A program made the position numbers and the translations under genes. A stretch of 64,000 nt of DNA from Clostridium sp. CAG:433 (GTDB lineage: Bacteria > Bacillota_I > Bacilli_A > RF39 > UBA660), in contig FR893564.1 in NCBI GenBank assembly GCA_000433675.1, positions 52,660 through 116,659 on the forward strand, read 5' to 3'. Below the pieces are notes generated by a model that had not been told where the DNA came from, searched no databases, and worked only from the letters and a program-made list of their open reading frames with translations. How positions within the stretch are numbered: the first letter of the stretch is position 1; every line of letters begins with the position of its first letter. Below are positions 3,663-64,000 of the stretch, piece by piece.

Positions 3663-3670
3663 GAAAAAAT

Positions 3671-43294: not shown

Positions 43295-43879
43295 TTATTT
43301 TTTATTTTTGGTATTAATCTGTTTTTTTACATCTTCTTGCATTTTTATTAATTTATTGTGTACATATACATTAGCAATATCAATTTCTTCAGAATTTGGT
43401 GTTTTTAGTATTTTATCGCAGTTTGGACAATAATTTTGAGCAGTTCCATAATAATAATTTCCATAGGAACTTCTTTTAATTAATTCTCCTTTGCATTTGT
43501 TACATATTGGTCTAAAGTTTTTGATTGTTATTTCATTATATAACTCAGAGTAATTCCAAGCATATCTAATACCTTCATAAATATCATCATTATAATCTTC
43601 ATACCATTTTTTAATATTACTAGCATCGTTTATTTTAACAATAATTAATAAAATAGCAAATATTATTATACCTACTATTAACAATACCCATAATGGAATA
43701 TTAATATTAAGTATAAAAACGATACTATTGAATATCCATTTTAAAAAAGATAGTATTCCTTCTAATATGTTGATATCTTGTAGTTTAGAAGTTATTATTC
43801 CTCCAACTACAGTCACTATAACTGGTAATAAAAACCAAATCCAAATAGATTTAAAAATTTTTTTCATATGATAAATCAC
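43295..43879 (-). CDS. hypothetical membrane protein with C-terminal zinc ribbon
   Basis: Three predicted TM helices then CNKCKG…CPNCDK. Confidence 0.4.
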   Translation of the reverse strand: MIYHMKKIFKSIWIWFLLPVIVTVVGGIITSKLQDINILEGILSFLKWIFNSIVFILNINIPLWVLLIVGIIIFAILLIIVKINDASNIKKWYEDYNDDIYEGIRYAWNYSELYNEITIKNFRPICNKCKGELIKRSSYGNYYYGTAQNYCPNCDKILKTPNSEEIDIANVYVHNKLIKMQEDVKKQINTKNKK

Positions 43880-43911
43880 CTTTCGAAATGTTGTTTACAT
43901 AGATAATTATA

Positions 43912-45360
43912 TCATAATTCAAAGTCATCTGATTTATCTCGTTCATATTTTTTATTAACTTTTTTACTTAAATCTTTAAAAGCAGAGTAATCGTATTTCT
44001 GATTTTTATCAACATCAAATCCTAGCGTTCTTTTTAGTGCTTTATATAAATCTATTGCTATATTTTTAACATTACTAATAATTGTATCGATATTTTCTTT
44101 TAATTCAGTTAATTCATTTCTTAATGAACTAATTATTGTGTTTTGATATTTTATAGTATCATCTTTTTCTTTAATAATTAAATTTTGATTTTCGATTATT
44201 TTATCTTTTTCTATTAATGTTTTACCTGATTTAAGATTTTTAATTTCAGTATTTAATTTATCAATTTGTTTCTGTTTGGATTCTAATTTTATTTCATTTT
44301 GTTCTATTATTTTTGATTTATTCAAATTATCTTTAGTTATTTCTTTTGAGTATTTAGATAGATTATTTATATCTTTTTCTTTATATCCAATTATTTTGCT
44401 TTTTTCAGGATTTAGAAGAGGATTTGTATCTACATCAGATATTTTCTCTTTATATGATATTTCAACTTCATTTAGGGCTTTATTCTTATTTAATTCAAGT
44501 TCCATTAGTTTGTTTTCTTCCTGTAGTTCTTCTAAATATTTTTCTGCTTTTGTTTGATGATATTTATTTCCTCCAATTTGACCTCTATCAAGATTAAAAC
44601 CTTTAGATGTTATAAATTTATTATAATCATCTTGTATTTTAGCAAATGATGTTTTAAAGCCTTTATCCTTCCAAAACTGATCACAATTTAGAAATTTTCC
44701 TTTTTCTATTGAATATAAATTTTTACCGTTTTCATCTTTCTTTTGAATAGGTATTAACTTTTCTTTTCCGTCTTTTCCTATATAAGATTTTAATATTTGA
44801 TGACCATTACTATCTGTTTCAAATACTTTTCTATGAACTTCATTCACTACTGGAGTAAAATAAAAATGCATATGTGGAGTATCTTCATCAAAATGAATAG
44901 CAGAGTAGACTACGTTTTCCTTTCCAACTAAATTACTTAAAAATTCATGTGAATATTTAAAATAGTTTAATACTTGTTCTGGAATATCATTTGGATTATT
45001 AATAACTACTTTATTAATAGGTTCTCCTTTATGTTCTCCAGTTAAATATTTTCTTCCTGTATCTTCAAATTTCATTCCTAATGATTTAAAGAATTCTTGT
45101 CCACTTGTTATTATGCATCCATTTAATAAATTGATATTTTTGTTGCTCTTGTTAAATTCTACATTATTTTTATAGAGAGTTTTATATGTTGAACTAGCTA
45201 AATTAGTACTACATAATGGAATAAATTCAATGTTATATTTAGTTCTATTTGTATCATAATTACCTGTACCAATTCTATCAGTAAGTTCTTTACTAAGACC
45301 ACCAATATCTGAAGATTTAATTTTGTTTGTTATAGTTAAAACCTGTTTTCCATCAAACAT
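43912..45360 (-). CDS. MobV/Mob_Pre family relaxase (paralog of the 14978 gene)
   Basis: HFDEDTPHMHFYFTPVV motif III; coiled-coil C-terminus ending …DDFEL like the element-1 relaxase. Confidence 0.8.
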   Translation of the reverse strand: MFDGKQVLTITNKIKSSDIGGLSKELTDRIGTGNYDTNRTKYNIEFIPLCSTNLASSTYKTLYKNNVEFNKSNKNINLLNGCIITSGQEFFKSLGMKFEDTGRKYLTGEHKGEPINKVVINNPNDIPEQVLNYFKYSHEFLSNLVGKENVVYSAIHFDEDTPHMHFYFTPVVNEVHRKVFETDSNGHQILKSYIGKDGKEKLIPIQKKDENGKNLYSIEKGKFLNCDQFWKDKGFKTSFAKIQDDYNKFITSKGFNLDRGQIGGNKYHQTKAEKYLEELQEENKLMELELNKNKALNEVEISYKEKISDVDTNPLLNPEKSKIIGYKEKDINNLSKYSKEITKDNLNKSKIIEQNEIKLESKQKQIDKLNTEIKNLKSGKTLIEKDKIIENQNLIIKEKDDTIKYQNTIISSLRNELTELKENIDTIISNVKNIAIDLYKALKRTLGFDVDKNQKYDYSAFKDLSKKVNKKYERDKSDDFEL

Positions 45361-45625
45361 TTATATAAATCCTTTAATATATTTATGACATTGTGACATT
45401 AATAATATGTGTGGCTTTGAGGAATTGGTCATTTATGACCTATCTCACTAGGGCATAGCCCAAAAGTGAGTTAAGGGAATCCCTTAAAAACCCATTCTTG
45501 TTTAAGCAAAGACTTAAGGTGATTTAAGTCTAAGCAATAAACAAGTGATTATTTATTAAAAAATAAATAATCAGAAGATGAGCCATTATCGCCACTTTCA
45601 TTGCTACGCAACAAAACGTGCCACA
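45361..45625 (-). other. candidate oriT/promoter region upstream of relaxase
   Basis: Several short inverted repeats (CTCACT…AGTGAG; GACTTAA…TTAAGTC) in the 265-bp region 5' of the relaxase gene. Confidence 0.25.
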
Positions 45626-46582
45626 TTATTCATCTTCATTTTGTGAAGGCTCTATAAATGTAGCATGATATAATCTACTATCAGCAGTTCTACATTTAGT
45701 AATATGAACACCTTCACTTTCTAAAAGTTCAATACTATTATTTAGTAATCTTCCGAATCTTTTAGGTGACATTGGTATATTAGCTTTTAATACTATATCA
45801 GTACAGGTAAAATCAATTTCTTTTTGACTAGCAACATATTTTATAAACGATGTTAGTTCAAAAGATAATTCATCTTCCTCAATAGAATTTATTTTACGAA
45901 ATATAAGGTTATCTAATTTTTTTAATTGAATATCTATTTCTGAAAAATCTCTATTTATTGTTTGTAATTTAACATATTTTTTATTTGCTTTATTTTCAAT
46001 TAAAGTTATTCTTCCATCAACAGTTGCATCTAGTGCAATACTTCCTAATGTTTTACCGGTTTTATTTAGATGATGTGTAACTAAAAAAGTTACATTATAT
46101 TTATCACAATAAGTTCTTAATTTTGGAAATATTTGCTGTGATACATCTTGATAATTATTAATATCATATTGGACTCCAAAATCAATATCTTTTAACATAT
46201 CTAAAATTATAAGTTTGCCGTTATATTCTTCAGCAAATGTTTTTATATCATATTCTAAATCATTTAAAGATATATTTGCTTTATTCTGTCTATCAATTAT
46301 AAATAAAGAGTCTTTTTTTGCTGATAGTTCCATGAATTCTAGGCGTTCCTTTAATTGAATTTTATCTGATTCTGTGGTAACATATAAAACAGGTGAGGGA
46401 TTTACTTTGTATCCTAAAAATGGTGTTCCGTTAATAACGGAGCAGGAAAGTTGCAGTGCCAACATAGACTTTCCTACTTTTGGATTAGATACTAAGAGAT
46501 ACACACCTTTAGACTTCATTATATTATTTATGATGATGTCTTTTTTTATGTTTGTATCTATTTGTTCTATTGGTTTAAGCAA
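45626..46582 (-). CDS. RecA-fold ATPase (RepA/AAA_25-like)
   Basis: P-loop GVYLLVSNPKVGKSMLALQL; layout typical of mobile-element replication/primase-associated ATPases. Confidence 0.5.
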   Translation of the reverse strand: MLKPIEQIDTNIKKDIIINNIMKSKGVYLLVSNPKVGKSMLALQLSCSVINGTPFLGYKVNPSPVLYVTTESDKIQLKERLEFMELSAKKDSLFIIDRQNKANISLNDLEYDIKTFAEEYNGKLIILDMLKDIDFGVQYDINNYQDVSQQIFPKLRTYCDKYNVTFLVTHHLNKTGKTLGSIALDATVDGRITLIENKANKKYVKLQTINRDFSEIDIQLKKLDNLIFRKINSIEEDELSFELTSFIKYVASQKEIDFTCTDIVLKANIPMSPKRFGRLLNNSIELLESEGVHITKCRTADSRLYHATFIEPSQNEDE

Positions 46583-47511: not shown

Positions 47512-48033
47512 ATGGCTAATAGTGATTTAAAAAATGTTATTGAGAATGCAAGAAAGGCACAAGGATATTCACAAAGACAATTAGCAAAACAAATAGGATT
47601 AAGTCAAAGTACATATAACGATACAATTAATGGAAAAATAAAAAAAGTTGATGTTGAGATTTTAAGAAAAATAGCAGAAGGCTTAAATCTTTCTTTAGAT
47701 TATTTATTAAAATTTTCTGGTTATGGTGATGTATATAGTTACATGAACGCCGAAAAATATTCAAATAAATCTACAAAAGATTTTGTTGAAATGTTAGACA
47801 AATATGAAAAATTTAAAATGGATATATTAGATTGGGATTATCAAAAAAGACAAAAGGCATTTGAGTTACAAGATTATATAAACAACATAAAAACTGAAAT
47901 AAGAATCATTTCAGCTGGAGGAGTTAGAAGAATGACTGATGAAGAACTTCTTCAAAATTTAGATGGAATGTATGAAATAACTAAGAAAATTGCTAAAAAG
48001 TATGATTATAGCAAATTACCGAAGGATTTATAG
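47512..48033 (+). CDS. XRE-family HTH transcriptional regulator
   Basis: HTH_3 motif SQRQLAKQIGLSQSTYNDTINGK. Confidence 0.7.
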   Translation: MANSDLKNVIENARKAQGYSQRQLAKQIGLSQSTYNDTINGKIKKVDVEILRKIAEGLNLSLDYLLKFSGYGDVYSYMNAEKYSNKSTKDFVEMLDKYEKFKMDILDWDYQKRQKAFELQDYINNIKTEIRIISAGGVRRMTDEELLQNLDGMYEITKKIAKKYDYSKLPKDL

Positions 48034-48044
48034 GAGGGTTAGTA

Positions 48045-48899
48045 ATGATAAAAGGAAAACCATTTGTAAAGTGGGCAGGTGGAAAAAGACAAATAATAGA
48101 TAAATTAAAAGAATATGTTCCATACGAGTTTAACACTTATTATGAACCATTTATAGGTGGTGGAGCATTATTATTTGAACTTTCACCTAAAAAAGCGGTT
48201 ATTAATGATTATAACAAAGAACTTATGAATGTATATGAATGTATTAAAGATGAAAAAAAATTCGAGGCAATGTGTAGAGAATTAAATCACCATGAAACTG
48301 AACATTCAGAAGAATACTATTATGAAGTTAGAAATATTGATAAAGATAAGAAGAAGTTTAATAAGTTAGCAGATTATAAAAGAGCAGCTCGTACTATTTA
48401 TTTAAATAAAGCTTGCTTTAACGGATTATATAGAGTTAATAGTAAAAATGAATTTAATGTACCATTTGGCAAGAAAACTAAAGTAAATACTTATGAAGGA
48501 CAAAATTTGGGTATTATATGTGGCTATTTAAATTATAATGACATTAAGTTATTATCAGTTGATTTTGAAGAGGCTGTAAAAGATGCCAAAAAAGGCGATT
48601 TTGTTTATTTTGATCCACCTTACGATTCTGATACTTCTACATTTAATAGTTATACTGAAGATGGTTTTGGAAAAGAAGAACAAAAAAGGCTTGCTAAAGT
48701 ATTTAAAGAATTATCTGATAGAGGATGCTATGTAATGCTTTCTAATCACAATACAACTTTAATAAATGAGTTATATAAAGATTTTCATATACATGTAATT
48801 GAGGCTAAAAGAAACATAAATGCTAATGGAAAGAAAAGGGGAAAAGTAGAAGAAGTTATTATAACAAACTTTGAAAATAAAAAAGGTTTTGAAGAATAG
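48045..48899 (+). CDS. Dam-family N6-adenine DNA methyltransferase (DpnM-like, GATC)
   Basis: FVKWAGGKRQ, YYEPFIGGGALLFEL, NGLYRVNSKNEFNVPFG, GDFVYFDPPY, YVMLSNHN…ELYKDFHIHVIEAKR – collinear with DpnM as recalled from memory; 284 aa. Confidence 0.85.
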   Translation: MIKGKPFVKWAGGKRQIIDKLKEYVPYEFNTYYEPFIGGGALLFELSPKKAVINDYNKELMNVYECIKDEKKFEAMCRELNHHETEHSEEYYYEVRNIDKDKKKFNKLADYKRAARTIYLNKACFNGLYRVNSKNEFNVPFGKKTKVNTYEGQNLGIICGYLNYNDIKLLSVDFEEAVKDAKKGDFVYFDPPYDSDTSTFNSYTEDGFGKEEQKRLAKVFKELSDRGCYVMLSNHNTTLINELYKDFHIHVIEAKRNINANGKKRGKVEEVIITNFENKKGFEE

Positions 48900-48915
48900 T
48901 TAAGGAGGTGGCAAT

Positions 48916-49683
48916 ATGTTTAAGAAACCATATTATGAAACAGATGGTTTTAAATTGATAAAAGGAGATTCATTTAAAGAATTAAAAAAGATTGAACCTA
49001 AATCAATAGACATGATTTTTGCAGATCCTCCTTATTTTTTATCTGGAGATGGTATAAGTTGTAGTGCAGGTAAAATGGTAAGTGTAAAAAAAGGTGAATG
49101 GGATGAAAAAATAAATATTGATAAAAAACATAAGTTTAATCGAAACTGGATTAAATTGTGTTACAATATTTTAAAAGATGAAGGAACAATATGGATTAGT
49201 GGAACAATGCATAATATTTACTCAATAGGTATGGCATTGGAACAAGAAGGCTTTAAAATAATAAATAATATAACTTGGAAAAAATTAAATCCACCACCGA
49301 ATATAAGCTGTCGTGCATTTGTTCACTCGACAGAAACAATTTTATGGGCAAAAAAAGATATTAAAAAAGCAAAACATAAATTTAATTATTCCTTGATGAA
49401 AGAGTTAAATGATAATAAACAAATGAAAGATGTTTGGGAGTCATCATTAACTAAACCTAGTGAGAAAAAACAAGGAAAACATCCAACTCAAAAACCTATT
49501 GCCATATTAGAAAGAATAATATTAGCATCTACAGATGAAGGAGATTTAATTTTAGATCCGTTTAATGGAAGTGGAACAACAGGAATTGTAGCGAATAAAT
49601 TAAATAGAAAATATATAGGAATAGAACAAGAAAAAGAATATTTAGATTTAACTATTAGAAGAAAGGAAGAAAATGATGAATAG
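48916..49683 (+). CDS. second N6/N4 DNA methyltransferase (DpnA-like, beta class)
   Basis: IFADPPYFLSGDG motif IV near the N-terminus, …HPTQKPIAILERII…, C-terminal FNGSGTTG (motif I). Confidence 0.8.
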   Translation: MFKKPYYETDGFKLIKGDSFKELKKIEPKSIDMIFADPPYFLSGDGISCSAGKMVSVKKGEWDEKINIDKKHKFNRNWIKLCYNILKDEGTIWISGTMHNIYSIGMALEQEGFKIINNITWKKLNPPPNISCRAFVHSTETILWAKKDIKKAKHKFNYSLMKELNDNKQMKDVWESSLTKPSEKKQGKHPTQKPIAILERIILASTDEGDLILDPFNGSGTTGIVANKLNRKYIGIEQEKEYLDLTIRRKEENDE

Positions 49684-50533
49684 AAATTTTAATGATTGGT
49701 TAAGTAAATTTAAAGCAAGTATTTCAAATTATAGTTATTATGTTGATTTTAACAAGATATATGGAAATGTAGACAAAATAAAAATTGAACTTAATATTTT
49801 AAATTCTTTAATTGGTAGTCAAAATATAGAAGAAGAATTTAGAAATATTATTTTTAAATATCCTGAAACATTGGAGTGTATTCCAGTTTTATTGGCAGTT
49901 AGATCAAATGAAATTTTTGTTAAAGATGAATTTGATGAATATTTATTCAAATTTAATAAAATGGTTTATTCAATTGATGATTATGTAAAATTCATGAAAG
50001 AAACTGGGTTATTTGATTTATTAGAAAATCATTTGATAAATAATTTATATGATTATGTTTTAGGTGTTGAAGTAGGCTTAGATTCAAATGGTAGAAAAAA
50101 TCGTGGTGGACATTTAATGGAAGATTTAGTAGAAAGTTATATTGTAAAAGCTGGATATGAAAAGAATGTTAATTATTTTAAAGAAATGTATTTAAGTGAC
50201 ATTGAAAAAAGATGGGGATTAGATTTATCTGCGATGTCTGGTGATAATACTTCTACAAAAAGATTTGATTTTGTTATTAAAACTGATAATCAGGTATATG
50301 TTATAGAAACTAATTTTTATGCTTCAGGTGGTTCGAAATTAAATGAAACAGCAAGAAGTTATAAAATGTTAGCAGAAGAATCAAAAAAAGTTGGTGGAGT
50401 AACATTTATATGGTTCACAGATGGAAAAGGTTGGAATAGTGCAAGAAAGAATCTTGAGGAAACATTTAATGAATTAGATACTTTATATTCAATAAATGAT
50501 TTGGAAAATGGTGTGTTAAATAATTTGGAGTGA
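49673..50533 (+). CDS. probable DpnII/MboI-like restriction endonuclease
   Basis: Third gene of a two-methylase cassette in the order of S. pneumoniae dpnM-dpnA-dpnB; 286 aa; overlaps upstream gene by 11 nt; no motif recognised by eye. Confidence 0.5.
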   Translation: MMNRNFNDWLSKFKASISNYSYYVDFNKIYGNVDKIKIELNILNSLIGSQNIEEEFRNIIFKYPETLECIPVLLAVRSNEIFVKDEFDEYLFKFNKMVYSIDDYVKFMKETGLFDLLENHLINNLYDYVLGVEVGLDSNGRKNRGGHLMEDLVESYIVKAGYEKNVNYFKEMYLSDIEKRWGLDLSAMSGDNTSTKRFDFVIKTDNQVYVIETNFYASGGSKLNETARSYKMLAEESKKVGGVTFIWFTDGKGWNSARKNLEETFNELDTLYSINDLENGVLNNLE

Positions 50534-50539
50534 TAAGCA

Positions 50540-52297
50540 GTGAATAATAGAATAATTAATAGTTATGTAGAAAATTTTTGTGGACAAAACGATTTTGATT
50601 CAAATAAATTTTTGTTATTTTCTACATATCAAATTTGTAAAAAACATAATTTAGATGAAAATATGTTAATTGATTGTGTTGTAGAAGGTGGAGGAGATGG
50701 TGGATTAGACTCTATTGTTGCATTAGTAGATAAAAAATATATATATTCTTTAGATGAATTTAATGAGTATGCTGAACAAATTAATGAAAACTCAAGAATA
50801 GATTTATACTTTATACAAGCAAAAGAAACAAATGGCATAAAAGAAACAGCATTTATGAAAATTAAAGATGTATTTGAAAAGTTGTTAGTTTCCAACAGTA
50901 TAACAGAAGAATTAAGAATACAATATAATCAAGTGTTAATAGAAAAATTCGAGTTAATAAATGAAATAATTATTAAATCATCTCCTAAAACAAATAATAT
51001 ATATATTAATGTTGCATATGCATATACAGGAAATTTAGATAAAGATAGTATTTCAATAGGAACTAAAAATCAAATTAATTCTATAAAAAAACTAGTTAGC
51101 GATACAACATATATAAATGAAGCAAATATATCCGTTGATATTTTTGATAGTAATAAATTAATTAACATAGCTAATAAAAGCATACAAAAAGATTATATAA
51201 TAAAATATAAAACGATTTTTAAAATGAATTATAGATCAGATAGTGAAAATGGTTTTGTTATGAATATGTCTATAAAGGATTATTATAATTTAATAACACA
51301 AGATAATGAAATTATCGATGTATTATTTGAAGGTAATATTCGTGATTTTGAAGGTCAAACAGTTGAGGTGAATAAAAATATAAAAAACACACTTGAAGAA
51401 GTTTATGATGCAGATTTTTGGTGGCTAAATAACGGCATAACTATGATAGTTGATTCGTATACTCCATTGCCAAATGATAGTGCGAAGGTTGTAAATCCTA
51501 TAATAGTTAATGGACTTCAAACTTCATATACAATATTTAATTATTTTAAAGAAAATATTGATAAGCTAGAAAATGAAGACAGAAACATATTACTTAAAAT
51601 AGTTAATACTGATAGCATAAATATCTCTGATATGATTATATCATCAACAAATAGGCAAAATGCTGTTAAACCAGCACAACTAAAAGCTACAGATCCGATA
51701 CAAAAAGACATAGAACAATTATTGTTGAAAAATGGTATATATTATGAAAGAAGAAAAAATTATTATAAAAACAGAGGAATTGATAAACATAAAATAGTGA
51801 CATTAGAAAACTTAGCTCAATATCTAGAATCAATTTATTATGGTAATTGCAGTGGAGCACGTAATAATCCAACTACATTATTAAAAAGTGAAAAACTTTA
51901 TAACAAATTATTTAATAATAGTATAAATCCTAATATATATACTATAACATCTGAAGTCGCTCTAAAAACATTAGAATGTTTAAGAAAAATCAAAAAAAAT
52001 AATGATGATATTTTTAACAAAAAACATTCTGTTTCATTAGATATATTTAAATTTTATATTATGAGAATGATTGTATTATGTTTATGTGGTAACAACATAA
52101 GTGAAAACTACTTAGAAATAGATTTAGAAAAAATAGATTATGATTTAACAGTAAATATTATTAATAAATTAGAATCTATAGTATCAGATATAAAAGATGA
52201 TAACGATAATATCATTAATATTTCTAAATCAAAAGAATTAGATAATAAAATTAATTCAGAAGATTTGTCTGAAATATGCTTAAAAGTAACTACTTAA
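50540..52297 (+). CDS. AIPR-like abortive-infection protein
   Basis: N-terminal VVEGGGDGGLDSIVAL resembling the AIPR GDGG(I/L)D signature; 585 aa; directly downstream of an RM cassette. Confidence 0.5.
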   Translation: MNNRIINSYVENFCGQNDFDSNKFLLFSTYQICKKHNLDENMLIDCVVEGGGDGGLDSIVALVDKKYIYSLDEFNEYAEQINENSRIDLYFIQAKETNGIKETAFMKIKDVFEKLLVSNSITEELRIQYNQVLIEKFELINEIIIKSSPKTNNIYINVAYAYTGNLDKDSISIGTKNQINSIKKLVSDTTYINEANISVDIFDSNKLINIANKSIQKDYIIKYKTIFKMNYRSDSENGFVMNMSIKDYYNLITQDNEIIDVLFEGNIRDFEGQTVEVNKNIKNTLEEVYDADFWWLNNGITMIVDSYTPLPNDSAKVVNPIIVNGLQTSYTIFNYFKENIDKLENEDRNILLKIVNTDSINISDMIISSTNRQNAVKPAQLKATDPIQKDIEQLLLKNGIYYERRKNYYKNRGIDKHKIVTLENLAQYLESIYYGNCSGARNNPTTLLKSEKLYNKLFNNSINPNIYTITSEVALKTLECLRKIKKNNDDIFNKKHSVSLDIFKFYIMRMIVLCLCGNNISENYLEIDLEKIDYDLTVNIINKLESIVSDIKDDNDNIINISKSKELDNKINSEDLSEICLKVTT

Positions 52298-52351
52298 TAA
52301 CATATATGTATATAATGTCATAATGTCATTAGTTAAAAAATATTAGGAGGT

Positions 52352-53026
52352 TTGGATATGAAAATGAGAAGTCAAATTATAATTGATTTAATTAATAATA
52401 AAATAAATATTACTCAAGCTATGGATACTTTAAAAATATTATTAAATGATATAGACAATCCAGAAATTAAAAATTGGTTGCTAAAAGAAATTGACGGTTA
52501 TAATCAAGATGATGATATTCCAAAATATAGAATTGTTCCAGCAACTATCACTGGAGAATATCTTGCAAGTTATGGAAGGATTCATGCAAAAAAACACCCA
52601 ATACCTATCGATCCACAATATATAGCTGATTGGAATTCAGTAAAAATTTTTGCTGGAATAAATGAAATATACCAATTTTCATTAGCAGAACAAAAAGAAG
52701 ACAGTCATCACTTATCAATATCATTACATCCAGTTTTAGTCAATCAAATAGCAATGATCGATGGCGAAGTGTTAGAAGCACATCAAGATTTATCAATTTA
52801 TGCTTATACTAATATAATAGGAAAATTAAAAGAAATAATACTTGATATTTTATTAAAATTAGAAAAAGAATATGGAAATTTAGATAGCTATTATATTGAA
52901 TTTGAGAATGATGAAAAAGAAAAGCAAACAATAAATTATATTATTAGCATAATAGACAATTCAATTAAATTTGGAGATAAGAATACTATAAAAAATTCTA
53001 ATATTGGTGATGAAAATGAAAATTAA
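52352..53026 (+). CDS. hypothetical protein (possible Abi-associated component)
   Basis: 224 aa; RBS AGGAGG; last protein-sized gene before right att. Confidence 0.4.
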   Translation: MDMKMRSQIIIDLINNKINITQAMDTLKILLNDIDNPEIKNWLLKEIDGYNQDDDIPKYRIVPATITGEYLASYGRIHAKKHPIPIDPQYIADWNSVKIFAGINEIYQFSLAEQKEDSHHLSISLHPVLVNQIAMIDGEVLEAHQDLSIYAYTNIIGKLKEIILDILLKLEKEYGNLDSYYIEFENDEKEKQTINYIISIIDNSIKFGDKNTIKNSNIGDENEN

Positions 53027-53183
53027 AATTGGAAAGAAAAATAAATTTAAAAATGTAAATATGGGTAATAACAATATAATTAACGAAGATAAAAACAATA
53101 AATCAAATATTATCATAGATATAATTGTCGGAATAATAGTTGCAGTTATTGGAGCTATAATTATAAAATTGTTAAAAATATAA
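53016..53183 (+). CDS. small membrane peptide (55 aa), translationally coupled
   Basis: ATG at 53016 overlaps the stop region of the upstream ORF; MKIKIGKKNKFKNVNMGNNNIINEDKNNKSNIIIDIIVGIIVAVIGAIIIKLLKI has a C-terminal TM helix; below the size cutoff of the ORF track. Confidence 0.4.
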   Translation: MKIKIGKKNKFKNVNMGNNNIINEDKNNKSNIIIDIIVGIIVAVIGAIIIKLLKI

Positions 53184-53200
53184 ATAGCTGACAAGTATTT

Positions 53201-53221
53201 CTACCCATCAGCTACCCATCA
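53201..53221 (+). repeat. direct repeat (right att) of element 2
   Basis: CTACCCATCAGCTACCCATCA. Confidence 0.7.
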
Positions 53222-53293
53222 AATTCATGTAAATTTATCAATTTTTGATTAAATTTTATTAAACTTAAAATGAGTTATATGTCGATATTACGT

Positions 53294-53317
53294 GGCTTTT
53301 CAACAAGCCTCTTTTTT
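53294..53317 (+). terminator. rho-independent terminator
   Basis: GGCTT-ttcaaca-AAGCC followed by TCTTTTTT. Confidence 0.6.
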
Positions 53318-53327
53318 AATATAATAG

Positions 53328-53360
53328 CCCCCTGAAGAGAGCGAAAGCTCTCATTTTTTT
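53328..53360 (+). terminator. rho-independent terminator (CCCCCTGAAG-type)
   Basis: CCCCCTGAAG AGAGC-gaa-AGCTCTC ATTTTTTT. Confidence 0.7.
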
Positions 53361-53547
53361 ATTTAATTTATTTGTGAAAAATTGAAATAAATTGTTTTTT
53401 ATAAAAATGACTTTTATAAATTATATTATTTATTTTAGACAAGTTATTGCTGATTTACAAATATTATTATACATTAAAGTCAGAAAGTATATACCTATTA
53501 TGGCTTTGGGAATTATGGTATAATTAATTTGTATTGAAGGTGATAAA

Positions 53548-53994
53548 ATGTTGAATATGTCAAATAGTGAACAAAAAAATGTAAATAGTGAAAATAATAC
53601 ATTAATTATAAATAATAAAAATTATGAAATAGATAAAATAGAAATCTGTGGTAAATACAATATTGAATTAGTAACTAAAAATTCAAATATAACATTATAT
53701 CTAGATTTAAATAAAGACGTTATTGCCTCATTAGTTTTAAATGAAAAAACTAATATTTCTGATAAAATAAGTAAAGACCAAAATATAAAAATAGAAAATA
53801 TTAGTTATACATTTTATATTGAAAATGAATTATATATAACAAAAATAAATGATAATGGGTATAAAATTGAATTATCAATGCCTAATATAGAATTATTAAT
53901 TCCGCCATTTGATGAAATAAATAAATCAAGAAATGATACTAATAAATCATTTTTAAAAAATATTTACTTAAATGTCGTTATTGAATTAAAATAA
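53548..53994 (+). CDS. hypothetical protein
   Basis: 148-aa N/K-rich ORF upstream of the Type IIG RM gene. Confidence 0.35.
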   Translation: MLNMSNSEQKNVNSENNTLIINNKNYEIDKIEICGKYNIELVTKNSNITLYLDLNKDVIASLVLNEKTNISDKISKDQNIKIENISYTFYIENELYITKINDNGYKIELSMPNIELLIPPFDEINKSRNDTNKSFLKNIYLNVVIELK

Positions 53995-54190
53995 AAATAT
54001 AAATAAATCAAAAATTTATACTTGATAATCTTTATGTTCAAAATTTTAAGTGGTATAATAAAACTATACTTTTTTCTTAGAAATATAGTTTTTATATAAA
54101 AATAAAAAGTAGTTGATATAAAGTGAATTTAAGTAACTAAATGTAGATTCATAAAAAATATAAGATAAACAATCAGTTAGGAGTACAGAC

Positions 54191-56926
54191 ATGAACATAT
54201 TAGATTTAATCGATTATTTAAAAAAAATGGGTTATAAATTTCACAATTTAGATACAAATGAACCTTTTTTAAAAATAAATGGAACAAAAATTATTTTTAA
54301 TATAGTTAATAAAAAATATAAAGTAGAGGGTATTTCTGTAGGACATGAAAGAATCCTAGATTTAACAAGGCCTGAAAATTACAGCGTTGTAATGTTTTTG
54401 ATAAAACTATTAAAAAAAGGTTATTCGAAAAATGTAATTTCATTAGAAAAAAGGTGGCAATTAGGACATAATGATAGTGGATCACTTGATGTTATGTTAA
54501 AAAATCCTATTAATAATGATATTTACATGATAGAAATAAAATCTCAATCAGAAATAAATAAATACGTAAATTTAAATAACGAAAAAAAATTAAAACAAGT
54601 TTTTTCTTATGCAATTCAGGAAAAAACAACTAAAATAATATCTTTTTATTCTTATGATTTTTCTGAAAATAAGGATATGTTTTACAATGTATATACAGAA
54701 GATATATTAAAAGAATCCCAAAATGTAGATGACTTTTTTGAAAGATGGAATAAAGTATTTGATAAAAGCGATTATATTTCTAATAACAAAATATTTAATT
54801 CAAGACAATCAGTTAAAAAATATAGTCAATTAGAGAATATTACAAATAATGATACAAAAACCTTATTTAATCAATTTGCGACAATATTAAGATTACATTC
54901 TATTTCTGATAAGCCCAATGCTTTTATTAAGATGATTAATTTGTTTTTGGCTAAAATAAATGATGAAATTACATCTGATAAAAAATTTGAAGTAAAGGAT
55001 AATGCAGGAAATATACATACTTTAAATGGTATGAAGTTCCAATATATTAGGGGTATAGATACTCCAGTATCTTTTATGAAAAGACTTAATGAGTTATATA
55101 AAGAAGGAATGAAAGAATACTTAAATAAAGATGTAATTGATTATAATGATGAAGAAATCGATGATTTATTACCAGACAATGTAGAAAATAGAAAACTTAT
55201 TGTAGAAACATTTGATAATCTAAGACTTAAGAAAAATAATAATTTTACATTTATTGATGTATTTGATGATGAAACATTCTATCTTAATTTTGAGGTTGTA
55301 AAAAGTGTTGTTGAACTTCTTGAAAATTATAGATTTAAGTATGATACGAAACATCAATTTTTAGGAGACTTTTTTGAAGAATTATTAAATACCAGTTTAA
55401 AACAAGAAGCTGGTCAGTTCTTTACACCTTATCCAATTGTTGATTTTATGGTTGATTCATTACCATATGAAAAACTTATTAAGAAGAATGTAGATTTAGG
55501 AAGAATTAATTTTATCCCTTCTGTTATCGATTATGCGTGTGGAGCAGGACACTTTTTAATAAGCAGTATGGCAAAAACACAAGAAATAATTAAAAAAATG
55601 AAAAATGAAAATTATAATTTTAACGAATTACAAACTAAAAAAATAAATGCATATATTGATGATCCATATTCATGGGTAAACAAAAGAAATTGTGTTGGAA
55701 TTGAAAAGGATTACAGACTTGCCAAAACAACTAAAATAGCAACGTTTCTTAATGGAGATGGTAATGCTGAAATAATTAGTGGAGACGGAATTAACAAATT
55801 TAATTCTAAGGATTATGAAAATACAATTTTAAATTCAAGTAAAAATAAAATTGAAAAGTTTGATTTTGTTATATCAAATCCACCATATTCAATAGATGGA
55901 TTTATGAGAAATTTTTCAAAGAATGGAATTACTCCAGAATCAGGCGATTTTTCATTATTAAAAAAATTAAATTATACAGATTCTGCAATAGAAACATTTT
56001 TTGTTGAAAGAACAGAACAACTTTTAGTTAATAATGGATATTGTGCAATTGTATTGCCACAATCTATTCTATCAAATTCAAAATATGAAAATATGAGAAG
56101 ATTCATGTTTAAAAATTTTGAAATAAAAGCTTTAGTTATGACATCAGATATTACTTTTTCAGGAACAACAACATCACCAGTTATATTATTTTTAAAGAAG
56201 ACAAAAGTACCAAATAAGCATTACAAAACATTAGTAGTAGGATCACCAAAATACATGAAACCAACTGGAAGTAAAATGAAAGATCAGGAAATTAAATTTC
56301 TTGGTTATGAATTTAGTACAAATAGGGCAAAGTCAGGAATTACTATAAAAGATAATTCAATATTATCAAAAATATCACCTATAATAAATAATTTTATTTC
56401 TAACGATGAAATAAATATACCTAAAAATTTATCTAATTTAGTGTATAGTAAATATTTTGATGATATATTATTAAATTCTTCTAAAGAATATTGCGGAGAT
56501 ATATATCCAAAATATAATCTTAATGAGGGTAAACCATTATCTAATTATTGCAAGATTAATTGTAGAACAACAGAGGATTTCGATAAAATGCCATCTGATT
56601 ATCTTGAAATAGGGGGCTTATCTACATTACAAACTAGTGAAAAAAAGAAAACAACTAATAGATTCTGCAAAAAAGGTGATATTCTAGTCTCTAGTTTATG
56701 TCCAAAAAGAAATCAAATTAAAATAGCAGATAAAGATTATATGGTTACAACAGCAATACATGTATTATCTGATTTTGAAAGTGAAGAGATAAAAGAAAAA
56801 ATTTATGAAAAAATTAGATCTGATGAAGTTTTAGAACAAATGAATTCTTTACTTGATGGTTTTAAAATCACTTATGCTAAAATTTCAGATGCAAATTTAA
56901 TTAATAATATATTAATTAATATATAA
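54191..56926 (+). CDS. Type IIG restriction-modification enzyme (fused PD-(D/E)xK nuclease plus gamma-class N6-adenine methyltransferase plus target-recognition domain)
   Basis: N-terminal D…EIK (SLDVMLKN…IYMIEIKSQ), GQFFTPYPIVDFMV, VIDYACGAGHFLIS (motif I), FVISNPPYS (motif IV), about 340-aa C-terminal region; 911 aa. Confidence 0.7.
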   Translation: MNILDLIDYLKKMGYKFHNLDTNEPFLKINGTKIIFNIVNKKYKVEGISVGHERILDLTRPENYSVVMFLIKLLKKGYSKNVISLEKRWQLGHNDSGSLDVMLKNPINNDIYMIEIKSQSEINKYVNLNNEKKLKQVFSYAIQEKTTKIISFYSYDFSENKDMFYNVYTEDILKESQNVDDFFERWNKVFDKSDYISNNKIFNSRQSVKKYSQLENITNNDTKTLFNQFATILRLHSISDKPNAFIKMINLFLAKINDEITSDKKFEVKDNAGNIHTLNGMKFQYIRGIDTPVSFMKRLNELYKEGMKEYLNKDVIDYNDEEIDDLLPDNVENRKLIVETFDNLRLKKNNNFTFIDVFDDETFYLNFEVVKSVVELLENYRFKYDTKHQFLGDFFEELLNTSLKQEAGQFFTPYPIVDFMVDSLPYEKLIKKNVDLGRINFIPSVIDYACGAGHFLISSMAKTQEIIKKMKNENYNFNELQTKKINAYIDDPYSWVNKRNCVGIEKDYRLAKTTKIATFLNGDGNAEIISGDGINKFNSKDYENTILNSSKNKIEKFDFVISNPPYSIDGFMRNFSKNGITPESGDFSLLKKLNYTDSAIETFFVERTEQLLVNNGYCAIVLPQSILSNSKYENMRRFMFKNFEIKALVMTSDITFSGTTTSPVILFLKKTKVPNKHYKTLVVGSPKYMKPTGSKMKDQEIKFLGYEFSTNRAKSGITIKDNSILSKISPIINNFISNDEINIPKNLSNLVYSKYFDDILLNSSKEYCGDIYPKYNLNEGKPLSNYCKINCRTTEDFDKMPSDYLEIGGLSTLQTSEKKKTTNRFCKKGDILVSSLCPKRNQIKIADKDYMVTTAIHVLSDFESEEIKEKIYEKIRSDEVLEQMNSLLDGFKITYAKISDANLINNILINI

Positions 56927-58817: not shown

Positions 58818-59408
58818 ATGGAAAATAAAACAAGCGCTATTAACATACAAGTAGATAGTAATGTAAAAAAAGAAGCAACAGACGTATTAACTGAACTTGG
58901 TTTATCAATGAGTTCTGCAATAAATTTATTTTTAAAACAAGTTGTTAAAAAAAATGGTATTCCATTTGAAATAACTAATGTATCACCTAAGAAAAAAATA
59001 CTAGATGTTGTGTGTGGATTAATTATGAAAGATGGGAAATGCTTAATTGCACAAAGAAAAAAAGAGGATCATTTATATGGTAAATGGGAATTTCCAGGTG
59101 GAAGAAGAGTAGGTCTTGAAGATGAAAAGAAAACTCTTGATAGAGCATTTACTGAAGTACTTGGAATTAATACAAAAATAAATGATTATATTACACATAG
59201 TATATGTGAATATCCAGGTCATATAGTAGACTTAAAATTATATGAATGTGATTATATAAGTGGTGATTTTAAATTAAATATTCATTCAGATTATAAATGG
59301 GTAGCAATTGAAGAACTATTAGATTATGATTTAGCAGATGCAGACGTTATCTTAACTAAATTCTTAATAAAAAAATATATAGAAGATGCTAAAGAAAATA
59401 ATAAATAA
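58818..59408 (+). CDS. RelB/DinJ antitoxin-like domain fused to MutT/NUDIX-like domain
   Basis: N-terminal INIQVDSNVKKEATDVLTELGLSMSSAINLFLKQVV (DinJ/RelB ribbon-helix-helix type); GKWEFPGGRRVGLEDEKKTLDRAFTEVLGI matches the MutT Nudix box but with RAF…EV in place of REL…EE. Confidence 0.55.
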   Translation: MENKTSAINIQVDSNVKKEATDVLTELGLSMSSAINLFLKQVVKKNGIPFEITNVSPKKKILDVVCGLIMKDGKCLIAQRKKEDHLYGKWEFPGGRRVGLEDEKKTLDRAFTEVLGINTKINDYITHSICEYPGHIVDLKLYECDYISGDFKLNIHSDYKWVAIEELLDYDLADADVILTKFLIKKYIEDAKENNK

Positions 59409-59422
59409 AGGAGTGCATAAAA

Positions 59423-59728
59423 ATGGTGGATTTTAGAAAATTACAAAAAGATGTTTATCAAAATAAAGTTGATAAAGGATTTAATACAACAGATGTAAAT
59501 AAGGAGTTTTGTTTAACATACGCAGAACTTGCAGAAGCATATGATGCTTGGCTTAAGAAAAAAGATGATGTTGGCGAAGAACTTGCAGATGTTGTTATAT
59601 TTACAATGGGATTATCAGAAATATTAGGTGTAGACTTAGAAAGTGAAATAATTAATAAAATTAATAAAAACTCTAAAAGAGTTTATAAGACTGTAGATGG
59701 AGTTTTAATGAAAGTAAAATCAGAATAA
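59423..59728 (+). CDS. MazG-like nucleotide pyrophosphohydrolase domain protein (small)
   Basis: 101 aa; LTYAELAEAYDAW…EELADVVIFTMGLSEILGVDL typical MazG/NTP-PPase helices. Confidence 0.55.
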   Translation: MVDFRKLQKDVYQNKVDKGFNTTDVNKEFCLTYAELAEAYDAWLKKKDDVGEELADVVIFTMGLSEILGVDLESEIINKINKNSKRVYKTVDGVLMKVKSE

Positions 59729-60511: not shown

Positions 60512-61509
60512 ATGAATAACATAAATAAGGATTTTTGTTGTGATGATTTTTCAAAGGCAAAGAAAATACTAGAAGGCGCAAATAGTTGTAAATATTGTTA
60601 TGTATTAGGTCCAACAGGACCACAAGGTGGTCCAGGCCCAATTGGTCCACAAGGAGAAATCGGTCCAAAAGGTGACATGGGTCTTCAAGGACCTAAGGGT
60701 GATAGAGGAGATATTGGTCCAACAGGACCTAAAGGAGAAAATGGACCTACTACAATTACAGTAGAATCAACTTCTTTAGCAGAAGTAACAAATACTGGAA
60801 CCAATAAGGATGTTATTTTAAATTTCAAAATACCAAAAGGCGCAACTGGTGAAATGTGCCCTAAGGGTGAAAAAGGCGATATAGGACCTAGAGGACTTCC
60901 TGGTGAAATAGGTATTAGTCAGGCTATTACAATAGATGGGACAGAAACAATAGAACCAAACGAACTTGCAGAAGTGCAAGATGATTTTGAAAGTAATATT
61001 CATCATTTGACATTCTATATACCAAAAGGAGAAAAGGGTGAAAAGGGTGATCAAGGAGAAGTGGGACCAAGAGGACCCGCAGGACCTGCCCCAGATGTTG
61101 CATATGGTGAAAGATATTTAGATTTAGAACAAGAATTAGTTTTAACAAAGGATCGAGATACAGTAGTTCCTTTAAATTTAGGGGGACCTGCATTTTTACA
61201 TATTTTGATACTGAAAACACTATTGAAATAAAACAAAATGGTTTCTATTTAATATCATATTTCTTTAGTGCATCACCTAGTGAGGACTGTAAGATAACAG
61301 CTATGGTAAAATATAATGATTTATTATTCCAGGCATGTAATGTAACAACTGACATGAAAGCAAATACTATTGGAAATATTACTAATACAATAATAGGAGC
61401 ATTAAATGATGGAGACAAGGTTACATTATGTGTAAGGTCATCAGTAAATACAACATTAACATTTGATGGAAGCACTAGCGCTAATCTAGTATTAGTAAGA
61501 ATTCACTAA
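60512..61509 (+). pseudogene. BclA-like collagen-triple-helix-repeat protein, frameshifted between collagen region and C1q/TNF-like C-terminal domain
   Basis: GPTGPQGGPGPIGPQGEIGPKGDMGLQGPKGDRGDIGPTGPKGENGP and GEKGEKGDQGEVGPRGPAGP repeats in frame A (60512..61231); C-terminal domain (…FDTENTIEIKQNGFYLISYFFSASPSEDCKITAMVKYNDLL…VRIH) continues in the -1 frame to 61509; switch region contains G5 and T5 runs. Confidence 0.5.
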
Positions 61510-61671
61510 TTAAAAGGCTTATATAATGAAATATAAGTCTTCTTTTTTTGCAATTTGATTTTGTATTTTTTTAAGCATATGATTATTGTTTTTATAATAA
61601 TCATAATATGTACCCTTGATTATTTTATTAATTAATGTTATTATAAATACGCTTTTATAAGGGGGATTTTT

Positions 61672-62694
61672 ATGGGAATAATATCTAATTTTGAAGGACA
61701 AAGTCAAATAAGAAATTTATTAAATAATGAGAATTATGATAAAGAAAAAGCGGATCAATTCTTAAAAAATAATGCTAGTATACCTATGTCTTCAGAATTA
61801 TTCTATGATACAGATAGATATATCAGAATGCAACAAAGTAAAATACAAGAAACGGATGCAGTATTTAAGTCCCCAAAATTATCACCAGAATTAAAAAAGG
61901 TTTTAATGTGTGAAAAGTTACCATTTAGAACTAAGACAAAAGATATGATAAGATATAATTTGATACAGGATTATCTAGATCGTGTCCTTTATACAACACA
62001 TTCTTCATGCATATATGATAATATAAAATATTATAATGCTGTTCCTGAAAGAAATATTCAATATGTTAGAGGTTATTTTGAATATAATGGAATAGATCTA
62101 AATAATAAAAAATCAATCGGGGATATATTTTGCAATTATGGTAATCCATATAAAGATCCAGATGGTATAAAACGCGATTTTGAAAAAATTGATAACCTTA
62201 TTGAAGATAAAAGAAATAGTGCATTAGGAAGATATGGAGAACTTGAAATATATAATATGTTAAAAGAAAATTTAAAACTAGAAGAAGAAATAAAGTGGGT
62301 TTCCAAAGATGTTGGAGATTTATTTGGCTATGATATTATAATTAGTAATGTAATGACAGGTGAAGTTAAATTAATCGAAGTTAAGACATCCTATAATAAT
62401 GGAGGCGAATTAACTTTATCTTTAAATGAATATAATAAACTACAAGAATCAATTAAAAATGGTATTGAATATGAAATGTACAAAGTTGAATATGTGAATG
62501 GTGAAAGAAAATTATTTAAAGTAACACATGATCATGATGAATATTATACTGTAGAAAATTTAATTACTGGCATCAAGAGTAATATGTTCTTTGATCAAAG
62601 TAGAATTAATCCAGAAAAAAAAGGAATATGCTTAAAACTTTCTGATTTGCCTTTAGTAGCATACTCTAATTATGTACCTAGAAAGGAACTATAA
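61672..62694 (+). CDS. hypothetical protein with C-terminal DUF3883-like (PD-(D/E)xK-fold) domain
   Basis: …KWVSKDVGDLFGYDIIISNVMTGEVKLIEVKTS… (GYDI…IEVK signature); paralog of the ORF starting at 63341. Confidence 0.45.
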   Translation: MGIISNFEGQSQIRNLLNNENYDKEKADQFLKNNASIPMSSELFYDTDRYIRMQQSKIQETDAVFKSPKLSPELKKVLMCEKLPFRTKTKDMIRYNLIQDYLDRVLYTTHSSCIYDNIKYYNAVPERNIQYVRGYFEYNGIDLNNKKSIGDIFCNYGNPYKDPDGIKRDFEKIDNLIEDKRNSALGRYGELEIYNMLKENLKLEEEIKWVSKDVGDLFGYDIIISNVMTGEVKLIEVKTSYNNGGELTLSLNEYNKLQESIKNGIEYEMYKVEYVNGERKLFKVTHDHDEYYTVENLITGIKSNMFFDQSRINPEKKGICLKLSDLPLVAYSNYVPRKEL

Positions 62695-62695
62695 T

Positions 62696-63328
62696 ATGGA
62701 AAAACAAGTATTATATCATATACATAAAATCGAGGGTAAGGATAGTACGGGTAAGTTTTGGAAAGAAAATAAAGAGATAAAAGTGGATGATAAGTTTAAA
62801 AATGGAATGCTTAAAAGATATAATGAATTTACAACTAAAACTTCAATTTTAGATGTAGATGGCAATATAATTGATAAGAATATACATGATTATTTAGCAA
62901 GAGTTTTATTTAAATTAAATAGTGGTAGAACTTTTTCAAAACAAGAACTAGAAGAAATTTTAAAATTATCATATCGTGCTTCCTATTATGGAAATATGTT
63001 TAAAAGAGAAACAGCATTAGAAAATTATAGAAAAGATAATGTTAGTACATTGCCCAGTAGATTACATACAATTTATTTAACTGATGAAAAAGGAATAGAT
63101 TATTGGGTAAATGCTTTACAAACAGATAATTATACACTATATAGAGTAGAAGCAAGTGGTGAAATATTTAAAACAAATGAACAATTAATACCAGAAGAGA
63201 TGTTAAGTTATAAAGATGTTTATGAAAGTGCATATAATTATTGGCATCCAAACTTTAAACATGTACCAGATTATACAAATGAATATTTGGTAAAAGGAAA
63301 AGTAAAAGTACTTGAAAAAATAAAATAG
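62696..63328 (+). CDS. hypothetical protein
   Basis: ATG 62696 just after stop of the upstream gene; no motif recognised. Confidence 0.4.
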   Translation: MEKQVLYHIHKIEGKDSTGKFWKENKEIKVDDKFKNGMLKRYNEFTTKTSILDVDGNIIDKNIHDYLARVLFKLNSGRTFSKQELEEILKLSYRASYYGNMFKRETALENYRKDNVSTLPSRLHTIYLTDEKGIDYWVNALQTDNYTLYRVEASGEIFKTNEQLIPEEMLSYKDVYESAYNYWHPNFKHVPDYTNEYLVKGKVKVLEKIK

Positions 63329-63340
63329 ATGAGGTAAAAC

Positions 63341-64000
63341 GTGGATAATATAGCAAAAAAAGAATGTCAAAATGATGTAATAAACTTACTTCAAGAAAAA
63401 GAATATAATGAGGATGGAGTAAGGATGTTTTTTAGAAATTTTGTCAACATAGAAGTAGAAGAACAATTAAAAGATGAAGTAAATAAATATAAAGAAAAAC
63501 AAAAAAGAAGAATAATCGATGTATATAATGCATTTAATGAAGATACTCCTAATGAAATAAAGAAAATAAAAATGGTAGAAAGATTACCATTTAGAACAGC
63601 ATTAAGAGATTATGAAAGATATTTTAAAATACAGTGCATATTATCAAAATTGTTATATAATGGTACTCATGATTTTAATGTATATAAAGTGATACCATAT
63701 TATGAAGCAATTAGTTTAGATGATATAGAAAAAATAAAAGAATATTTAGAAAATAATGGCATATATTTAAAAAATGAAAACTTTATTAAAGATAAATTAT
63801 GCAATTATGGAGAGCTATATAAAGATGAAGATGGAATAAAAAAGGATTTTGATAGATTGTCCCATCATCACGAATATATATTAAAGGAAAATTCAGATTT
63901 AATTATTAGAAGATATAGTGAATTATGTATATATAATATGCTTAAAAATAATTTAAAAAGTTATGAAGAAATAAAATGGGGTTCCAAAGATGTTTGTGAT
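63341..64000 (+). CDS. hypothetical protein, paralog of 61672..62694 (partial, runs off window end)
   Basis: GTG start with GAGGT RBS; …LPFRTALRDYERY…NYGELYKDEDGIKKDFDRL…IKWGSKDVCD is collinear with the 61672 protein. Confidence 0.45.
   Translation, partial: MDNIAKKECQNDVINLLQEKEYNEDGVRMFFRNFVNIEVEEQLKDEVNKYKEKQKRRIIDVYNAFNEDTPNEIKKIKMVERLPFRTALRDYERYFKIQCILSKLLYNGTHDFNVYKVIPYYEAISLDDIEKIKEYLENNGIYLKNENFIKDKLCNYGELYKDEDGIKKDFDRLSHHHEYILKENSDLIIRRYSELCIYNMLKNNLKSYEEIKWGSKDVCD

Follow-up and report, generated by a model that had tools for sequence, protein, structure and literature searches.

What is the role of the three co-oriented genes that lie between 61.5 kb and the end of a 64,000-nucleotide stretch of DNA from Clostridium sp. 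CAG:433 (assembly GCA_000433675.1, contig FR893564.1, positions 52,660 to 116,659 of the forward strand)? An initial annotation of this stretch, which we refer to as the window, had described two paralogous nuclease genes flanking an unknown gene and had suggested a plausible defence or toxin locus. We name the genes A, M and B in the order in which they are read. In our analysis A keeps the full predicted catalytic set of a NOV_C nuclease, M is a predicted DUF2441/BC2332-type protein of the ADP-ribosyltransferase (ART) fold that retains the invariant residues of its family, and B is a predicted catalytically dead paralog of A. We tentatively read the three genes as a conflict- or defence-type operon that comprises a NOV_C nickase or endonuclease, a partner resembling ART proteins and a dead, dispensable paralog, a reading that we hold to be a real possibility, if somewhat short of probable.

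The open reading frames (ORFs) listed in the initial annotation, namely A at 61672 with 340 amino acids, a middle ORF of 218 amino acids and a partial ORF from 63341, were all found again. Gene A matched the Pfam family NOV_C (PF13020, formerly DUF3883) with 47.8 bits against a cut-off of 22.1 (E 1.6e-12), over residues 192-283 of the protein and positions 4-90 of the 91 in the profile. The DUF3883 signature noted earlier, GYDIIISNV…GEVKLIEVKTS, lies within this segment, and the Pfam search proposed as a check of it was thus positive. The protein is composed of an all-helical N-terminal domain (residues 1 to ~186; we set the boundary at 186), a NOV_C domain of the PD-(D/E)xK type (~187-277) and a beta-rich tail (278-320). 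In the AlphaFold model of A, which has a predicted local distance difference test score (pLDDT) of 82, ten helices extend to about residue 199 and are followed by a beta-beta-beta-beta-alpha-beta unit and the beta-rich tail. The last helix of the helical part (178-199) belongs in the model to the nuclease fold already, and the alpha-beta-beta-beta-alpha-beta core of PD-(D/E)xK nucleases is present. The predicted active site consists of E190, which is carried by this helix (codon 62239-62241, 5' of the Pfam match), D221, E236-x-K238 and E253. D221 precedes strand 222-226 in the model, E236 and K238 lie in strand 232-240 and E253 lies in helix 251-262. All five residues are invariant across the 21 aligned A-family sequences, each of which also carries the motif GYD…(I/V)EVK.

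The closest functional parallel comes from HmaA of the Hma system, a Snf2 helicase with a NOV_C nickase, in which D1084, E1104, K1106 and E1121 of the NOV_C domain are needed for Mn2+-dependent nicking and for phage defence (PMC11232893). Both proteins carry NOV_C at the C terminus with the same D…E-x-K…E pattern, and the spacing from E-x-K to the next Glu is identical at 17 residues. The active-site residues of A lie in strands 2 and 3 and in the helix that comes next, in agreement with the description of HmaA (PMC11232893). The best fold neighbours of A are the Holliday-junction resolvases Hjc and RecU, and Hjc is the closest solved fold for the NOV_C domain of HmaA as well. The restriction enzyme YenY4I likewise has DUF3883 as its catalytic domain (PMC6765204); HmaA and YenY4I are the only proteins for which metal-dependent DNA cleavage or nicking by NOV_C has been demonstrated (PMC11232893, PMC6765204).

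The N-terminal domain of A, which has a counterpart in B alone, carries the motifs LPFRT and CNYG.PYK..G...DF. When a profile of the N-terminal domains of A and B was run against 1.84 billion representative proteins, it returned 16 matches, which were representatives of A/B clusters, truncated B variants and short fragments. The domain had no match in Pfam, NCBIfam, PHROGs, PDB sequences or BFVD; residues 1-160 of A matched nothing in Pfam, NCBIfam or PADLOC, an A/B profile matched no PDB sequence, and NCBIfam had no match for A, M or B. In a structure search of BFVD with A, the only proteins retrieved were RecU/Hjc-like nucleases of viruses, small ones of about 100-200 amino acids, and no full-length relative was among them. 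None of 72,556 plasmids and 50,697 phage records matched A in tblastn. The A family comprises 39 proteins, and its full-length members are at least 61% identical.

Gene B is cut by the window edge, as the initial annotation had noted. We obtained the sequence past 64000 from a metagenome contig, L001, which differs from the window by 3 mismatches in 701 aligned bases. In the contig collection, 440 indexed blocks contain the exact A protein; the contigs that we examined derive from human-gut metagenome samples. A scan of species-representative genome contigs returned a single locus, in a Hadza metagenome-assembled genome labelled 'uncultured Bacilli bacterium', with an A protein 80% identical to that of the window. 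The extension to L001 (11670-12719) gave the full second copy of 349 amino acids. A and the B fragment inside the window are collinear over 222 residues with 40% identity (BLASTP E 2e-44), and the motifs on which their paralogy had been proposed (LPFRT, NYG..YKD.DGIK.DF and IKW.SKDV) all lie within the alignment.

The nuclease-like domain of B begins just past the window end, and it is here that the two proteins part. Where A reads GYD…IEVK, all eight aligned B-family sequences read GYN…IN(V/I)K, so that both metal-binding acids are replaced by Asn (codons AAT and AAT, against GAT and GAA in A); the Asn codon aligned to D221 would sit at window coordinate 64013, 13 nucleotides beyond the end. 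B keeps the Lys and both flanking Glu residues of the motif. Full-length B had no match to Pfam NOV_C even at E <= 10, and only E 0.0016 to the PADLOC profile PDC-S36, whereas direct alignment leaves its homology to the NOV_C domain of A clear, and a deletion variant of B (P0043) has a precomputed PF13020 match. With no NOV_C match to full-length B and both acids changed to Asn, the supposed duplicated nuclease pair is therefore one predicted nuclease and one pseudo-nuclease. A search for the B family returned 15 proteins, nine of which cover the whole query and are at least 87% identical; the others are truncated or chimeric variants.

Three database proteins from short metagenome contigs have a chimeric appearance. 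P0039 joins a NOV_C core 85% identical to that of A to another, short N terminus and a DnaD-like (PF07261) tail. In P0040 the reading frame of B continues into a tail (…GVDFLGY…) that looks by eye like a reverse-transcriptase/maturase fragment, and P0052 joins the first ~140 residues of B to unrelated sequence. These may be real recombinants or assembly artefacts.

The gene between A and B, for which the initial annotation had no family, encodes a protein that matched Pfam DUF2441 with 35.4 bits against a cut-off of 25, and a profile of 33 sequences matched PDB entry 2AUA (BC2332 of Bacillus cereus) at E 2.2e-12. DUF2441 is assigned to the ART clan of Pfam (PMC7955679), BC2332 is placed in the ADP-ribosylation superfamily of SCOP (PMC3000352), and a 'certain' active-site template match to diphtheria toxin has been reported (PMC3024214). 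The structure model of M (pLDDT 93.5) has the ART fold in common with characterised ADP-ribosyltransferases, and its structural neighbours include ART-fold toxins that have partner antitoxins, namely DarT, ParT, MbcT and RES. The invariant residues of the M family (H, R-E, R, P-S-R, YW and E-Y) are also found in 2AUA. The literature that we found on DUF2441 and BC2332 reports no demonstrated activity for any member.

M was the only one of the three proteins to match PHROGs; tblastn of M against the 50,697 phage records gave no match, and against the 72,556 plasmids it gave one weak match, on Klebsiella pneumoniae plasmid CP067827 (L008, 221655-233963). The DUF2441 gene of this plasmid is accompanied by an ATP-binding protein and HNH endonuclease pair on the opposite strand, DUF1778, DUF4145 with a DNA helicase, and insertion sequence elements, a neighbourhood that looks like a defence island. 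Another organism, represented by contig L009, has a solo DUF2441 gene at 4001-4615 with 59% identity to M, which likewise lies ~2.4 kb from recG and adjoins a phage-integrase fragment; the region near recG may be a recurrent home of the DUF2441 family.

The arrangement of the three genes points to a single transcription unit (Table 1). The initial annotation had placed the middle gene at 1-nucleotide spacing from both neighbours, which holds between A and M if M starts at ATG 62696, while the distance from the M stop to the B start is 12 nucleotides. This ATG, which gives 210 amino acids and is used by the gene calls of all metagenome contigs, is likely to be preferable to the start of the 218-amino-acid version (62672-63328), an in-frame ATG upstream that lies inside A and makes M overlap A by 23 nucleotides. 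The hairpin and T-run before A probably end the upstream collagen/BclA-like gene and would insulate the operon, and a second hairpin with a similar z of about -2.9 lies 3' of B (L001 12718-12738). A terminator scan of L001 9500-13000, in which both hairpins lie, called no terminator, because it demands three G-C pairs. Consensus scanning of the same AT-rich stretch gave 38 promoter-like sites, compared with 32.1 +/- 5.9 in shuffled sequences, and the promoter match alone therefore proves little; the comparative evidence for a promoter at this site, described below, is stronger than the consensus match. The next gene after B encodes a TetR protein and has a strong promoter of its own (TTGACA-17-TATACT). 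With its flanking hairpins, its short spacings and the separate TetR promoter, A-M-B appears to be a self-contained three-gene operon. Rfam over the whole window returned only a tRNA-Thr(CGU) at 12110-12185, the sole RNA gene found, so that neither a riboswitch nor any other regulatory RNA was seen at the operon. The window has a guanine plus cytosine content of ~24%; its GC and AT skews are inverted over about 42-47 kb, where a gene block (42004-46582) lies on the minus strand.

Table 1. Positions of the operon, its signals and domains, and the genes of the upstream defence island, in window coordinates
Feature	Position	Strand	Description
Hairpin and T-run	61514-61541	+	11-bp stem, 6-nt loop, free energy (dG) -10.1 kcal/mol, z -2.9 against shuffles
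Promoter-like site	61616-61644	+	TTGATT-17-TATTAT with extended -10 TG; from the consensus scan on L001 9945-9973 (same stretch)
Gene A	61672-62694	+	ORF of 340 amino acids; GGGGG ribosome-binding site
Helical N-terminal domain of A	61672-62229	+	Residues 1-186
NOV_C (DUF3883) predicted nuclease core of A	62245-62520	+	Pfam match, residues 192-283
Gene M	62696-63328	+	210 amino acids from ATG 62696; start 1 nt past the A stop
Gene B	63341-64000	+	220 of its 349 codons lie in the window; start codon GTG, ribosome-binding site GAGG
Helix-turn-helix controller	within 47512-56926		
Dam-like methyltransferase	48045		DpnII-type system
N6_N4 methyltransferase	48916		DpnII-type system
DpnII restriction endonuclease	49673		
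AbiU/AIPR	50540		
AbiTii	52352		
Type IIG enzyme	54191		911 amino acids

Comparison across contigs separates what is constant in this cassette from what is not. The promoter-like site followed by A, M and B occurs at the locus of the window in L001-L006, L012 and L016-L025. In L030, a block with an MqsA/Panacea-type module truncates B after codon ~120; in place of the rest of B (2584-5844) there are an ORF of 119 amino acids, a protein of 338 amino acids with MqsA_antitoxin and SocA_Panacea domains and a predicted membrane protein of 236 amino acids. This block has the appearance of an inserted toxin-antitoxin-like element next to the cassette. L007 has A and M without B, between a dihydrofolate reductase (DHFR) gene and a Zip transporter gene. 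In the same DHFR/Zip context, L014 (6698-8743) and L015 (2298-4343) have a UvrD-family helicase of 681 amino acids after A and M in place of B, with GajB-like PADLOC matches at E 2e-14. A single contig, L028, represents the same locus with flanks 94-95% identical at the nucleotide level and has the same promoter directly upstream of M, with neither A nor B. Its M allele is only 78% identical at the DNA level, compared with 94-95% in the flanks, and the indel boundaries hug the ORF of A.

In every context seen, A is followed by M at 1-nucleotide spacing. The blastn block common to the two contexts runs from 56 nucleotides upstream of the A start, where the promoter-like site begins (L001 9945), and reaches, give or take one base, the end of the M stop. 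The conserved unit is thus the promoter, A and M, with B optional: what stays together is A with M, and not the two paralogs that the initial annotation had treated as the unit. We had considered two independent chromosomal sites for A-M and dropped this idea, as the second context also has, according to blastn, an upstream remnant of the collagen-like gene. Both contexts may derive by rearrangement from a single ancestral locus, and for this reason we make no claim of mobility; the tblastn searches of plasmids and phages gave no evidence of a plasmid- or phage-borne cassette.

We then compared evolutionary rates using pairwise ratios of nonsynonymous to synonymous substitution (dN/dS, NG86) between L001 and L012; values for short segments are noisy and are to be read as trends only. 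A had the highest ratio of the three genes (0.63), followed by B with 0.40 and M with 0.26. Among six neighbouring genes, five had values of 0.02-0.11, and the remaining one, an unannotated gene of 145 amino acids, had 0.34. Within A, residues 101-186 and 278-340 gave 0.65-1.7 and the nuclease core 0.3-0.4, and the dead core of B gave 0.20. B therefore does not look like a plain pseudogene, an idea that we do not favour given these ratios and an ORF that is intact in all full-length contigs; it appears to be selectively maintained, within a small sampled divergence of at most 11% at the amino-acid level. The trees of A and M are incongruent: between L001 and L007, A is 80% and M 66% identical, whereas between L001 and L012, A is 71% and M 90% identical. 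This indicates recombination inside the cassette, which is therefore a recombining mosaic.

The operon lies downstream of a defence island. The island (47512-56926) is located directly after recG (39821-41779), and its DpnII restriction-modification, AbiU, AbiTii and type IIG genes are 5-14 kb upstream of the operon. In other strains the slot after recG holds Fic and a gene of 403 amino acids, or a gene of 802 amino acids, or nothing before the type IIG block; in some strains RsgA-NUDIX-TnpV lies upstream of the type IIG block and recG falls outside the stretch covered. In all 10 contexts shown for a neighbouring gene in this species, the stretch that begins with the type IIG gene, includes the trio and ends with the TetR and ABC genes is the same, and the trio is variable only between close relatives (L028, L030). 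The early suggestion of an accessory tract is supported by the nearby defence genes and by the syntenic relative that lacks A and B; it does not extend to variation within the species, where the trio looks fixed. Between the island and the operon, at 58818-59728, lies a gene for a RelB-NUDIX fusion of 196 amino acids, for which PADLOC gave a match to PDC-S07, a single-gene candidate, with E 1.7e-34; it is followed by a MazG-like gene of 101 amino acids; both are highly conserved between L001 and L012 (dN/dS 0.02-0.05). Nearer to the operon, a collagen-repeat/BclA-like gene (60512-61509) is split into ORFs of 239 and 68 amino acids. It is unsplit, with its BclA_C domain included, in L028 (338 amino acids) and L013 (335 amino acids) and has another split point in L004 and L024; the split could reflect a frameshift, phase variation or assembly slippage in the repeat.

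The cassette does not belong to Hma, Tiamat, PDC-S36 or the DUF3427-DUF3883 enzymes, since it shares with these systems the NOV_C domain alone. HmaA is a protein of ~1,190 amino acids that has an N-terminal Snf2 helicase and works with HmaB and HmaC, whereas A has 340 amino acids, a helical orphan N-terminal domain, no ATPase and a DUF2441 partner. In PADLOC-DB v2 the best matches of A were PDC-S36 (E 1.8e-14) and TmtA of Tiamat (E 1e-6), both over NOV_C only: for PDC-S36, profile positions 135-265 of 280 matched residues 162-289 of A and the N-terminal half remained unmatched, and of the TmtA profiles (1,300-1,800 positions) only the extreme C terminus was matched. PDC-S36 is itself, we take it, an experimentally unconfirmed candidate, and the literature searched makes no mention of it. 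The modification-dependent enzymes of the YenY4I/McaZI type (PUA/DUF3427 with DUF3883; PMC6765204) resemble A in having an N-terminal sensing region, putative in A, and a C-terminal catalytic DUF3883 domain; they are found stand-alone or beside an NTPase or helicase in defence islands, and one A-M variant is located beside the UvrD/GajB-like helicase. Unlike these enzymes, A has no detectable PUA, SRA or DUF3427 reader domain. For BC2332, the DUF2441 prototype, the literature found describes no pairing with a NOV_C nuclease.

How might the three proteins work in a conflict or defence operon? By analogy with the NOV_C domains of HmaA and YenY4I-type enzymes, A may be a Mg2+/Mn2+-dependent DNA nickase or endonuclease, whose fast-evolving N-terminal domain and tail would set its trigger or target. 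M could be an NAD+-using partner of A, either a second effector or a controller of A; A was never found without M directly downstream. B probably still binds the ligand of the family but would be unable to cut, and it would most likely pair with A as a regulatory or structural subunit, because nucleases of this fold work as dimers. Pairs of catalytic and non-catalytic paralogs of the PD-(D/E)xK type exist in XPF-ERCC1, Mus81-Eme1 and the alpha2-beta2 tRNA-splicing endonucleases of archaea and eukaryotes; compared with these, an A-B heterodimer is hypothetical, and B is dispensable in some relatives. Together, the island neighbours, the raised dN/dS, the recombination, the alternative third genes and the syntenic relative with M only suggest a conflict signature.

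A number of observations weigh against this reading. Six homologues of M with 32-72% identity are solo in unrelated contexts, so that M does not need A, and one of the six takes the place of the cassette at this very locus, downstream of that promoter; the link between A and M could hence be positional and not functional. The incongruence of their trees speaks against a tight allele-specific partnership. The trio is fixed in the species, unlike the variable hot spot by recG. The dispensability of B in L007 and L030 fits an accessory subunit and a decaying copy equally well. PADLOC had no match for M, and no entry of this catalogue covers the A-M-B set. Comparative evidence is shallow owing to the tiny size of the A family.

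Several of these observations take on a different meaning if A and M form a toxin-antitoxin-like pair, with a nuclease curbed by M or an ART toxin curbed by A, serving addiction or stress arrest instead of defence against phages and leaving B as a spare or decoy. The 1-nucleotide coupling and the constant presence of M beside A would be expected of such a pair, DarT, ParT, MbcT and RES are structural neighbours of M, and the insertion next to the cassette in L030 is of the MqsA/Panacea type. We nevertheless consider this unlikely: M occurs solo in many genomes and in phage protein families, which is unlike a dedicated antitoxin and surprising for an unguarded toxin, it keeps enzyme-like invariant residues, and the alleles of A and M are shuffled relative to each other, which is unexpected for a cognate binding pair. 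B as the essential antitoxin of A was rejected in view of A and M without B (L007), truncated B (L030) and a helicase in its place (L014). Decidedly unlikely, in our estimate, is that A is a selfish, free-standing homing-endonuclease-like gene that entered between a resident promoter and a resident DUF2441 gene and would spread through cleavage of alleles without A, with B a degenerating older copy and M the landing site. The presence/absence polymorphism with intact flanks at one homologous site that marks a homing gene is indeed seen, through L028 alone: A always comes with M, yet M exists without A at the same locus and promoter, with indel boundaries close to A, and co-conversion or target-site divergence would yield an A-less M allele that differs more than its flanks. 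Homing endonuclease genes pass through a cycle of invasion, decay and loss, which the state of B matches, as it has no catalytic residues, is truncated in L030 and is absent in L028 and L007. Yet B is under purifying selection that is strongest in its dead core, the block kept across contexts contains the promoter and M as well as A, and fast evolution of the N-terminal domain and tail of A fits proteins in an arms race better than it fits site-specific homing enzymes; in the literature found, NOV_C is not described as a homing endonuclease family.

The trio might also have no conflict role at all, M being a housekeeping or small-molecule ART (an antibiotic modifier like Arr, for example, or an RNA enzyme like Tpt1), A and B being Hjc/RecU-like DNA repair or recombination proteins that are on one transcript by chance, and B a remnant without function. 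This would be in keeping with solo M genes among obg, def and ribosomal protein genes, with the fold neighbours of A and with the fixation of the trio. The restriction of the A/B family to a tiny clade, with an N-terminal domain found nowhere else among 1.84e9 representatives, dN/dS values 3-30 times those of five of the six neighbours, the lack of A and B in a close syntenic relative and a site that borders a defence island make it very unlikely. Finally, it is tempting to speculate on a mark-and-cut scheme, in which M would ADP-ribosylate nucleic acid that is invading or being replicated, the N-terminal domain of A would read the adduct and A would cut, while the dead B would either read the adduct as well or form the half of a heterodimer that does not cut, so that cutting becomes nicking. 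The scheme draws on DarT, a DNA ADP-ribosyltransferase, among the fold neighbours of M and on the modification dependence of DUF3883 enzymes such as YenY4I and McaZI, and we give it only a slight chance, the smallest of all the accounts considered here. To our knowledge, no restriction that depends on ADP-ribosylated DNA, with writer and reader nuclease in one operon, has been described.

NOV_C/DUF3883 nuclease domains are known defence effectors, but in the known cases the domain is always either joined to a reader of modified bases or placed at the C terminus of a large helicase or ATPase. In the present cassette NOV_C is carried by a small protein, whose N-terminal domain was found nowhere else in the databases searched and whose gene is coupled to that of a DUF2441 protein. 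A and B would represent a compact natural example of a nuclease that bears its active site beside a dead paralog that appears to be selectively maintained, in an abundant, uncultured low-GC gut bacterium. If the pairing of A and M is functional, it would provide the first testable biological context for DUF2441 and would add the combination of a nuclease and an ADP-ribosyltransferase to the defence repertoire.

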